DNA of 64,000 nt from Escherichia coli (GTDB lineage: Bacteria > Pseudomonadota > Gammaproteobacteria > Enterobacterales > Enterobacteriaceae), in NCBI RefSeq assembly GCF_003018235.1, contig NZ_CP027437.1. One strand, given 5' to 3'. This document shows positions 58,139-63,782 of this stretch, piece by piece; position 1 is the stretch's first letter; every line of letters begins with the position of its first letter. Both the position numbers and the translations under genes were made by a program. Under the pieces are notes generated by a model. That model searched no databases. It was given only the letters and a program-made list of their open reading frames with translations, and was not told the origin of the DNA.

Positions 58139-58645
58139 TCATATATTATCTTCCTGTTGCAGGAATTGATTATAAAAAGATAGTTTTTTATCTAAAAATA
58201 AAAAGTGATACCCAACCGACTTTAGATCATTATTTATGACAGATAATAACTTATTCCATTCATAGATATATTTATATTTATTTACAAGCAATACACTTTT
58301 ACTAGAATTTAAATTAAAAAGTTCATCCGTGTTTATGGAGATCCATTTTGAAAAAATTTCAATATTCTTTTTATCTATTTTAACATCTAATAATACCGTA
58401 AAGGATTCACATAAGAAATTGCATTCAAAGTTAAACCCGGAGATGATACCATCAAGCATTTTGATAATATCATCAATGATTTCACTCAGGCTATTAAGTG
58501 TTAGTGAAATATGAACGCCATTCCAGTTTATATAAAAACACCCGGATGATATGGGATATGCGGAAAATATAGCCTCCGATAAATTAATATCCTCTTCATC
58601 CATGAGGCCTTTTTGATAAGTATCATCAATTTCTATTTTGAACAT
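58139..58645 (-). CDS. Putative Rhs immunity protein (RhsI) for the main Rhs toxin, 168 aa
   Basis: ATG lies 1 nt after the rhs stop codon (..GKtaa-t-ATGTTCAAA); AT-rich; ORF track reports a longer 215-aa version overlapping the rhs 3' end. Confidence 0.65.
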   Translation of the reverse strand: MFKIEIDDTYQKGLMDEEDINLSEAIFSAYPISSGCFYINWNGVHISLTLNSLSEIIDDIIKMLDGIISGFNFECNFLCESFTVLLDVKIDKKNIEIFSKWISINTDELFNLNSSKSVLLVNKYKYIYEWNKLLSVINNDLKSVGYHFLFLDKKLSFYNQFLQQEDNI

Positions 58646-58646
58646 A

Positions 58647-61600
58647 TTACTTACCCTTTTCATAAATGGGGCCTGCTGTCGATGAATCAATTGGGAAACC
58701 GTGAAAAGTCCCATCCCCATTATTTCTGACCCGAATTTTATCCGGTTTAATAGGTACTCCATTTCCTCCGGGAATATAAACTTCACTCTTACTATTTTGA
58801 TTTATAGGAAAATCTTTCATCTCATCCGGTTTTAGCGTGGCAGCTTGTTCTCCAGCATATTTCAGATCATCCTTGCTTCTCCAAACTCCATGAGGATTCT
58901 TTTCTTTATCTGCAATTGCTTGAGCTGCGTTAGGATGTAGTTTCATCCCATGCCTTTTCCCTCTTGAGTAACCATTCTCGGCTTTTAAGCAGGTGGGATT
59001 TAATCCAAGAGGATCGATCCAACTTAAAGGATTCGGCGCATAAGCGTACAGGTTTAACCCGCCTCTCAGCCCTATCGGGTCCGTTACCATGAACCGCCCG
59101 ACATCCGGATCATAGTACCTGTGCAGATTGTAGTGCAGCCCCGTTTCCCTGTCGAGGTACTGTCCCTGGTAGCGCAGGTTCTGCTCCACCCCGCCGTGGT
59201 CCTTCTCCTGTATCGTGTTACCCCAGACCTGATACCCCGTCTCCCACACGATTTTCCCGTCACTGTCCGTCATCTCTTCCGGCGCGCCGTTCACATCCGT
59301 GTGAAAATACAGTATCCGGTTCAGGCCCTCTTTACCCACCTTATCCACCCGCGCCAGCGGTTCATAACTCCCCGGGTCGCTGTAGATATACAGGCTGCTT
59401 ATTCCCTCCGGCCTGCTCTCCTGCGCCAGCCGCATTCCGTCCCATAAAAATGTCGTCCGGTTGTACGGTTTACCGTCAGGGCTGATGTGCTGTTTTTCCG
59501 TCCGCCTCCCCAGCGCATCGTACACATACCGGTACGTTCCCCGCGCTGTCGTCACTTCCACCATCCGGTGTTCCGCATCATAACGGTAACTCTGCGTGCC
59601 GCTCCGGCCCTCCTTTTCCACCGCACGGCCAAATTCGTCGTAACGGTAGTGCACACCACGGTAAGACATCAGCCGGTTGAACGGCACCACGCTGTTTTCT
59701 GCCGTGGCCCTTTCCCCCGCGCGCCGCGCCAGCAGGTTTCCCGCCGCGTCGTACTCCCAGCTCGCCAGATACCCCTCATCCTCCGAGCGGCACGCCGTGA
59801 TGCGCCCCGTGGGGTCGTAGAAGTAATCCGTTTCCCCCCGCCGGCTGTGCCGCGTCTTCAGCAGTTCATCCTCGCCGCTGTAGCTGTACTGCCGGTCCGT
59901 GAACGTCTCCGGTACCACCCCGCGCATCCCGCTGTATGTCTCCCTGCGCTTCAGCCGCCCGGCGGGGTCATAAAGCTGCCGCGTGCTCAGTCGCCCCTGA
60001 CTTCTGAGCACTTCCCGGTGCAGGGCGTCACGTGTGAACTCGCTGATGACCTCCCGGTCCAGATTTATCTGCTGGAGATGGCCGCTGCCGTAGTACAGAT
60101 GACGCTGCGTTCTGCCGTCCGGAAAGGTGGTGGCTGTCCGGTTGCTGAGTTCATCGTACTGATGGGTCAGGACGCCCTGCGCCGTCTCCTCAGTCAGCAT
60201 CCGCCCCAGTCTGTCGTAACTGAAGCGGATAATCTCCGGTGCGTCCATTTCCCCGGCATCCGACCGTCGGCGGCGGATTTCCAGTAGCTGGTCTGCCGCA
60301 TCATGGACGTATTCCGTACGGCTATCGGCTGTCTCCTTTGCCGTGAGCCGGCCCGCCGCATCACGTGCCAGCCGGTGGCGGATTTCACCGCCCCGGTCCC
60401 CTGTGAACACCACTTCCGTGACCGCGTTCAGCACGTTGTAACGGTACGTCTGGCGGCAGCCGTCCGGATTTATCTGCTCCGCCAGACGGTCCAGCACATC
60501 ATGGCGGAACCGGTAGTTTTCTCCGTTCTCGTTCGTGAGCGTGACCAGACGCCCGTAAGCATCGTACCCGAACGCCGTCCTGCGCCCCGTCGCGTCTGTC
60601 CGGCTGCGCACCCGGCCCTGCCCGTCCCGCTGCCAGCGCGTTATCCTCCCCATCGGGCTGGTGTACTTCACGAGCCTGCCCGCCGCGTCCGACTGGTAAT
60701 TCACCGTGCGGCCGTCCGCCAGTATCACCTCCGTCAGGTGGCCGCTGTCGTCATACCCGTAGCGCGTGCTGTGGCTCTGCGCGTCTGTCATCCGTATCAG
60801 CCGCGTGCGTTCGTCGTAGAACCAGGCCGTCTGCGAGCCGGAACAGTCCGTGTGCCGCATGAGCTGTCCGTCTTCGTTCCACTGAAGGTATTTATTCCCC
60901 CCGCGCGCATCCGTTATCTGCACCACCTGACCGTGGCGGTCATACTGATACCGGGTGTTCTGCTGCAGCGGGTCGGTCACCGCAAGAAGATTGCCGCGTT
61001 CATCGTACTCACAGCACCAGCTGTTCCCCGCCGCGTCCACCTCCGTTTCCGGCTGGTGCCACACCGGGTGCCACTGTGTCTGTGCCACCCGCCCCAGCGG
61101 GTCGTGCGTCTCCGTGATATGCCCCTGCCGGTCATACACATAGCGCCATTTGCCGCCCTGCGCATCGGTCATTCCCAGTAACAGCCGTTCTTCGTCGCTC
61201 CAGCGGAACGTCGTCACCTGCCCGGCTTCGTCCTGGTACGCCGTCACCTGGTTCTGCGCGTCCCACTGATGATAACGCGTGCGCCCCAGCCCGTCCGTCA
61301 CGCACAGCCTGCGTGCCGCGAGGCTCCACGCCAGCCGGTACTGTTCACCGCTGTCCGTGTGGTGCCCCGTCACCCGCCACGCTGCGTCATCCGGGCCTTC
61401 ATACCAGCCCCACTGGTAATAATACCCTTCGCCGCCCGGCTGGCGGTGCAGGGTCATGCAGTGGTTTTCGTCGTAAGCAAACTCGCGCAGCAGGTGCCCC
61501 GTGCTGTCGTACACGCCGTTCAGGTCGCCGGCCTCGTCATAGCGGTAACGACGCAGCAGTAAAGGAGCCGTCTCAGGGAAATGCTGATAAATCTGTGTCA

Positions 61601-63311: not shown

Positions 63312-63329
63312 GTCCCGTTCCCTGTGTGA

Positions 63330-63782
63330 TTAATTCGTCCCGGCTTCCTGCCGCATCCTGAAGCGCAGATTCTTTTTAATTTCAGCCCAGCGCGTCATAT
63401 CTGCCGGGGTCAGCGGTGTGGTTCTGGCGTAGGTGAAGGCCATCATGACCCGCTCACCCGGCAATACAAATGCCACCTGACACTGGTACACCTGCTCGTT
63501 ACCCCGGAGAAACTGGCTCTGTATTTCCAGTCCTTCTTCACCGTCATTAATCCCCACCCGTGTTACCTGAACGGGCGTGTAGTGAAGATCCTTTACCTGT
63601 TTCTCCAGTTTTTTCATTTGCTGTTCAATCTGGGAGGCTAATTCGTCTCCTTCCTGCATCTGGCCCCGGCTGATAATGAGTGCAGCGTCGGGATCGCTGA
63701 GGCGCAGCATATTAATAGTACTGTCCTGAATAATATTCCCGGAAAAAGTTACAACAGTTTCATTGAGATAATACTCCGTCAT
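63330..63782 (-). CDS. Putative DUF1795/EagR-family chaperone for the prePAAR Rhs effector
   Basis: 150-aa ORF ending 18 nt upstream of the rhs start on the same strand; size and position match Eag chaperones; family assignment by context and recollection, not alignment. Confidence 0.5.
   Translation of the reverse strand: MTEYYLNETVVTFSGNIIQDSTINMLRLSDPDAALIISRGQMQEGDELASQIEQQMKKLEKQVKDLHYTPVQVTRVGINDGEEGLEIQSQFLRGNEQVYQCQVAFVLPGERVMMAFTYARTTPLTPADMTRWAEIKKNLRFRMRQEAGTN

Follow-up and report, generated by a model that had tools for sequence, protein, structure and literature searches.

The locus lies in the E. coli rhsE region, beside nhoA, within a stretch of 64,000 nucleotides that was analysed as a whole (the window). 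The gene order on the minus strand is vgrG, eag, rhs, immunity gene and orphan module, with the following features.

63833-64000, minus strand: 3' end of vgrG, a T6SS spike gene that runs off the window end and lies directly upstream of the chaperone gene
63330-63782, minus strand: Eag-type (DUF1795/DcrB family) chaperone gene, 150 aa (Pfam DcrB, PF08786, E 1.1e-18)
58647-63311, minus strand: rhs, complete ORF of 1554 aa; exact-sequence look-up gives WP_249926946.1
63264-63293, minus strand: prePAAR motif AARQGDALLH, aa 7-16 (regular expression AARxxDxxxH)
63093-63260, minus strand: single hydrophobic/TMD region, aa 18-73 (Kyte-Doolittle), the expected Eag-binding segment
62349-63023, minus strand: PAAR region split by an insert, aa about 97-321 (Pfam PAAR_motif)
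59001-61577, minus strand: Rhs cage of YD repeats plus Rhs-associated core, up to and including PLSWIDPLGL (NCBIfam, Pfam)
59001-59030, minus strand: autoproteolysis motif PLSWIDPLGL (PxxxxDPxGL type), aa 1428-1437
58650-58997, minus strand: C-terminal toxin domain, 116 aa after DPLGLN (aa 1439-1554), with a predicted RNase A-like fold and conserved H16, R/K91 and H99-G-F-P102 strand
58139-58645, minus strand: putative cognate immunity gene, 168 aa, with its ATG at 58645, one base after the rhs stop
57275-58072, minus strand: orphan module, made of a decayed core end, a different tip and a candidate immunity ORF
57931-58072, minus strand: decayed Rhs core end with in-frame stops, a 76-84% match to the 3' end of the rhs core
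57572-57930, minus strand: orphan tip, about 118 aa after DPLGL, unlike the main tip
57275-57559, minus strand: candidate immunity ORF of the orphan module, 94 aa

The original prediction had placed here a 1554-aa Rhs protein with a prePAAR motif and N-terminal transmembrane helices, an Eag-type chaperone gene 18 nt upstream, about 115 C-terminal residues of lower GC content after DPLGLN, and an ORF starting 1 nt past the rhs stop codon (TAA, 58649-58647). All of these features were recovered, and the coordinates were confirmed on the minus strand. The prePAAR motif aligned with AAREGDPIKH in Tre23 (7pq5), a T6SS Rhs effector of solved structure, and the N terminus of the protein aligned with solved T6SS Rhs effectors. 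The transmembrane helices correspond to one predicted region, called by Kyte-Doolittle hydropathy only: among the first 450 residues, only the stretch 18-73 reached a mean of 1.6 or more over 19 residues (peak, 2.32). Class I effectors are laid out with one TMD region ahead of PAAR (PMC7773334). Pfam reported DUF6531, RHS and PAAR_motif, the last at aa 291-321 (E 2e-5) with a weaker match at aa 97-118. The PAAR part of 7q97_A, an Rhs protein of solved structure, aligned with aa 287-396 (E 6.8e-15). The NCBIfam PAAR model scored below its cut-off (18.5 vs 124 bits), which marks this PAAR as divergent and split. NCBIfam models also detected RHS_core (2.6e-98), 11 YD repeats and Rhs_assc_core (1.5e-28, aa 1360-1437).

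The chaperone ORF ends 18 nt before the rhs ATG, and its product resembled SciW, an Eag chaperone of solved structure (6xrb/6xrr/9mvg), weakly in sequence (E about 2.5e-3). The 54 translated VgrG residues were 100% identical to the C terminus of WP_059341537.1, a 'type VI secretion system Vgr family protein', and vgrG, a DcrB-related gene and rhs occur in the same order in related genomes. As far as its sequence goes, the locus is a complete class I prePAAR Rhs effector system, every feature of the definition (PMC7773334) that was tested having been found in the window.

Other genes of the E. coli rhsE locus were 96-98% identical to this one, an identity that ended at 59001-59005, the DPLGL codons. 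The GC content fell from 0.615 (Rhs core) to 0.417 (tip) and 0.276 (downstream ORF); that of the window is 0.487. The break at the junction, the shift in composition and the co-inherited downstream gene suggest that the tip and the ORF that follows it form a polymorphic toxin-immunity cassette.

The tip had been described as belonging to no recognised toxin family, and profile searches of the tip and of the 168-aa protein bore this out: neither had a Pfam match even at an E value of up to 10, or an NCBIfam match. Searching PDB sequences with the tip (phmmer and the family profile) returned no RNase, the alkaline phosphatase matches at E about 0.1 being noise, and PDB sequences also yielded nothing for the 168-aa protein. 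PADLOC gave only a noise-level match to Csm5 for the pair. The toxin family comprised 159 representatives, found on RHS, PT-HINT, eCIS, DUF4280 and T7SS-signal proteins, and the domain lay within 12 aa of the C terminus in 131 of 147 relatives. Four positions were strongly conserved: H16 (136/138), R/K91 (137/149), H99 (141/147) and P102 (144/145); the domain has no conserved Cys or Glu. Ntox1 (PF15500) was considered and rejected. Its model matched 3 of 51 full-length relatives and none of the trimmed domains, and its signature of C, C, H and E was absent. As Ntox1 is defined by that pattern and is associated with PVC/eCIS (PMC3482391), the PF15500 matches were taken to fall outside the toxin domain. 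We regard the tip as a new family, by sequence, within a well-known class of bacterial toxins.

An AlphaFold2 model of the tip (pLDDT, 95.1; pTM, 0.86) added an assignment at the level of fold, predicted to be RNase A-like/BECR with a conserved two-histidine pattern. Given this fold and this pattern, the modelled tip is probably an RNase toxin. Its three top structural neighbours are all experimentally shown RNases (PMC5435912, PMC12700104, PMC9970974), and a near-invariant histidine pair with a conserved basic residue is the arrangement typical of metal-independent RNases among BECR toxins (PMC3482391). The F-H-G-F-P strand of the tip has counterparts in I-T276-G-Y278-P of CdiA-CT(Ykris) and in H528-x-V-P of YxiD. 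Judging by the succession of secondary-structure elements and by motif comparison, we infer that H16, H99 and R91 lie close together and that the two histidines are equivalent to His12 and His119 of RNase A. It is rather unlikely, in our estimation, that a tip of RNase A-like fold is not an RNA endonuclease and instead acts on DNA or nucleotides, or poisons a protein target by binding it. Fold alone does not set the substrate, the closest solved relative is only 9% identical, some BECR toxins bind EF-Tu (e.g., Rhs2 of S. Typhimurium), and the HMMs of known RNase families do not recognise the tip; PF18431 and Ntox50 recognised 0 of 60 family members (Pfam, E up to 0.1). The identity of the structural neighbours and the near invariance of the histidine pair, together with the conserved basic residue, argue for RNase activity.

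The downstream ORF had been proposed to be the cognate immunity gene, and comparative data agree with this. A homologue of the ORF follows a homologue of the toxin in every lineage examined, which is how a cognate immunity gene would be expected to behave. Such pairs were found in Salmonella, other E. coli, Rapidithrix (immunity homologue, BLASTP E 5e-19), Chryseobacterium and Flavobacterium, as well as in two metagenomic Bacteroidota-type loci, an ESAT-6/DUF6507-flanked locus and a metagenomic RHS locus (immunity hhalign, 98.8% and 99.8% for the last two, respectively). The predicted fold of the 168-aa protein is a mixed sheet-helix one that resembles CdiI-type immunity proteins. A 215-aa, GTG-started version of the ORF, which overlaps rhs in the mechanical ORF list, was ruled out: the homologues all start at an MF(K/Q)I methionine, so the 168-aa reading is correct. 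That the ORF encodes another accessory factor, or is a chance ORF in AT-rich DNA, seems extremely improbable to us.

The toxin and its putative immunity gene appear to be a mobile cassette, borne as an orphan module in Salmonella and other E. coli and joined to the main, presumably expressed rhs gene in this strain. The tip is most closely related to a Salmonella orphan Rhs, and Salmonella strains carry this same tip and immunity pair as an orphan in the SPI-6 Rhs1 array; several serovars carry the pair. The DNA of the tip and immunity gene was absent from the 5426 complete E. coli genomes searched, and the cassette is known only in draft assemblies and the source genome. The orphan module downstream of the immunity gene in the window reads ...YYHRFRYYDCETW*YLCTDPIGL...PNPLGWIDPLGLSAAS... 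in its frame; its tip and ORF were found on a full Rhs gene in 1 of the 5426 complete genomes.

Another reading is that the locus is intact in sequence but inert, for lack of a compatible T6SS or of expression of the island, its genes persisting only as a recombination reservoir with an immunity function. No T6SS core (tss) genes were found within the 64-kb window, Salmonella and other E. coli have the cassette as an orphan with no promoter, and in one E. coli copy 87 bp are missing from the toxin-coding region next to an intact immunity gene. Against this, all frames in the window are intact (the VgrG end, eag, the 4.66-kb rhs and the immunity gene), H16, R91, H99 and the cleavage motif are all kept, and the cassette sits on a full-length main rhs gene and not in an orphan position. 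We regard an inert locus as unlikely.

Taken together, we consider it likely that this class I prePAAR Rhs locus encodes a T6SS-delivered, metal-independent two-histidine RNase with its cognate immunity protein. According to this model, an Eag dimer would shield the TMD region of the Rhs N terminus in the producer, and prePAAR and PAAR would attach the effector to the VgrG spike. Inside the Rhs cage would lie the 116-aa tip, which aspartyl autoproteolysis at PLSWIDPLGL would free, and T6SS firing would carry it into a neighbouring cell. RNA would then be cut by metal-independent acid-base catalysis involving H16, located after helix 1, and H99 in the H-G-F-P motif of the last strand, with R91 stabilising the transition state. 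The 168-aa protein, translationally coupled to rhs by its start 1 nt past the stop codon, would bind the toxin and block its RNA-binding face, protecting the producer and its kin.

The pair is currently annotated only as 'RHS repeat-associated core domain-containing protein' and 'hypothetical protein'. Our analysis gives it a named, predicted fold, a testable catalytic hypothesis (H16, R91, H99) and a putative cognate immunity family. For bacterial warfare, Rhs and other polymorphic toxins are one of the chief sources of novel enzyme activities. Since the pair is spread over Rhs, PT-HINT, eCIS and T7SS-type delivery domains, in Enterobacteriaceae, Bacteroidota and a T7SS-type ESAT-6/DUF6507 locus, an HMM built from the alignments would better annotate many genomes. 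To our knowledge, CdiA-CT(Ykris) is the only well-studied bacterial toxin with an RNase A fold, and it has Thr/Tyr at the second site. A bolder reading is that the tip family keeps both catalytic histidines in the positions of vertebrate RNase A, after helix 1 and in the last strand, and that the cassette moved between Bacteroidota and Enterobacteriaceae. We hold this to be very unlikely; if true, the family would be a more canonical prokaryotic counterpart of RNase A than CdiA-CT(Ykris) and a concrete candidate lineage for testing whether animal RNases A arose by horizontal transfer of a bacterial toxin, as has been proposed (PMC7297114).

Among known systems, the SPI-6 locus Rhs1(TreTu)-SciW-VgrS of Salmonella Typhimurium (Ahmad et al. 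2020, PMC7773334) has the same order of vgrG, DUF1795 chaperone gene and rhs. Rhs1(TreTu) also has prePAAR, a single TMD region and PAAR, followed, as here, by immunity and orphan modules. Its tip is an ADP-ribosyltransferase (TreTu), unlike the tip described here, and the present Eag is only distantly similar to SciW. The Rhs2-SciX orphan of S. Typhimurium LT2 was rejected as a relative of the tip, being a different toxin whose best match is 5T86 and whose key residues are D192 and H204.

The similarity scores of the tip to the vertebrate RNase A superfamily (amphinase, onconase, EDN, RNase 1, angiogenin) were below those to bacterial toxins, and hhalign of the tip-family profile with bovine RNase A detected no relationship in sequence (probability, 0.08%). 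The tip is devoid of disulfides, and no conserved equivalent of Lys41 of RNase A was identified.

The toxins closest to the tip are bacterial ones. MafB2-CT/MafI2 of Neisseria meningitidis (PDB 8hhj; PMC9970974) is among the known systems closest to it. The Ntox50 HMM (PF15542), the family of YxiD-CT/YxxD of Bacillus subtilis 6633 (PDB 9v8i; PMC12700104), gave no match to the tip. Ntox50 is defined by three conserved histidines, including that of HxVP, a set that the tip does not have: the third histidine, 7 residues before the strand histidine (H521 in YxiD, H402 in MafB2), is Asn92 in the tip. Delivery of YxiD and MafB2 is by T7SS/LXG or Maf, whereas the architecture here points to T6SS/Rhs.

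The model of the tip shares a common RNase A-type fold with CdiA-CT of the CdiA-CT/CdiI pair of Yersinia kristensenii 33638 (PDB 5e3e; PF18431; Batot et al. 2017, PMC5435912). The two sequences are 9% identical, the PF18431 HMM does not recognise the tip, and the toxin-family profile did not recover the 5e3e sequence at E values of up to 10. CdiI(Ykris) is all-helical (PMC9970974), whereas the 168-aa protein is predicted to be mixed. The helix residue Arg186 of CdiA-CT(Ykris) has no conserved counterpart in the tip, whose basic residue, R/K91, is on a strand. Where CdiA-CT(Ykris) has the invariant residues His175 and Thr276, the latter in its I-T-G-Y/F-P strand, the tip has the N-terminal H16 and, instead of the threonine, the strand histidine H99, the positional equivalence of these residues being deduced from the motifs. 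The tip family thereby has a second histidine that CdiA-CT(Ykris) lacks, and would add to the few bacterial enzymes of RNase A fold known so far a group whose His-His arrangement is unlike that of this prototype.

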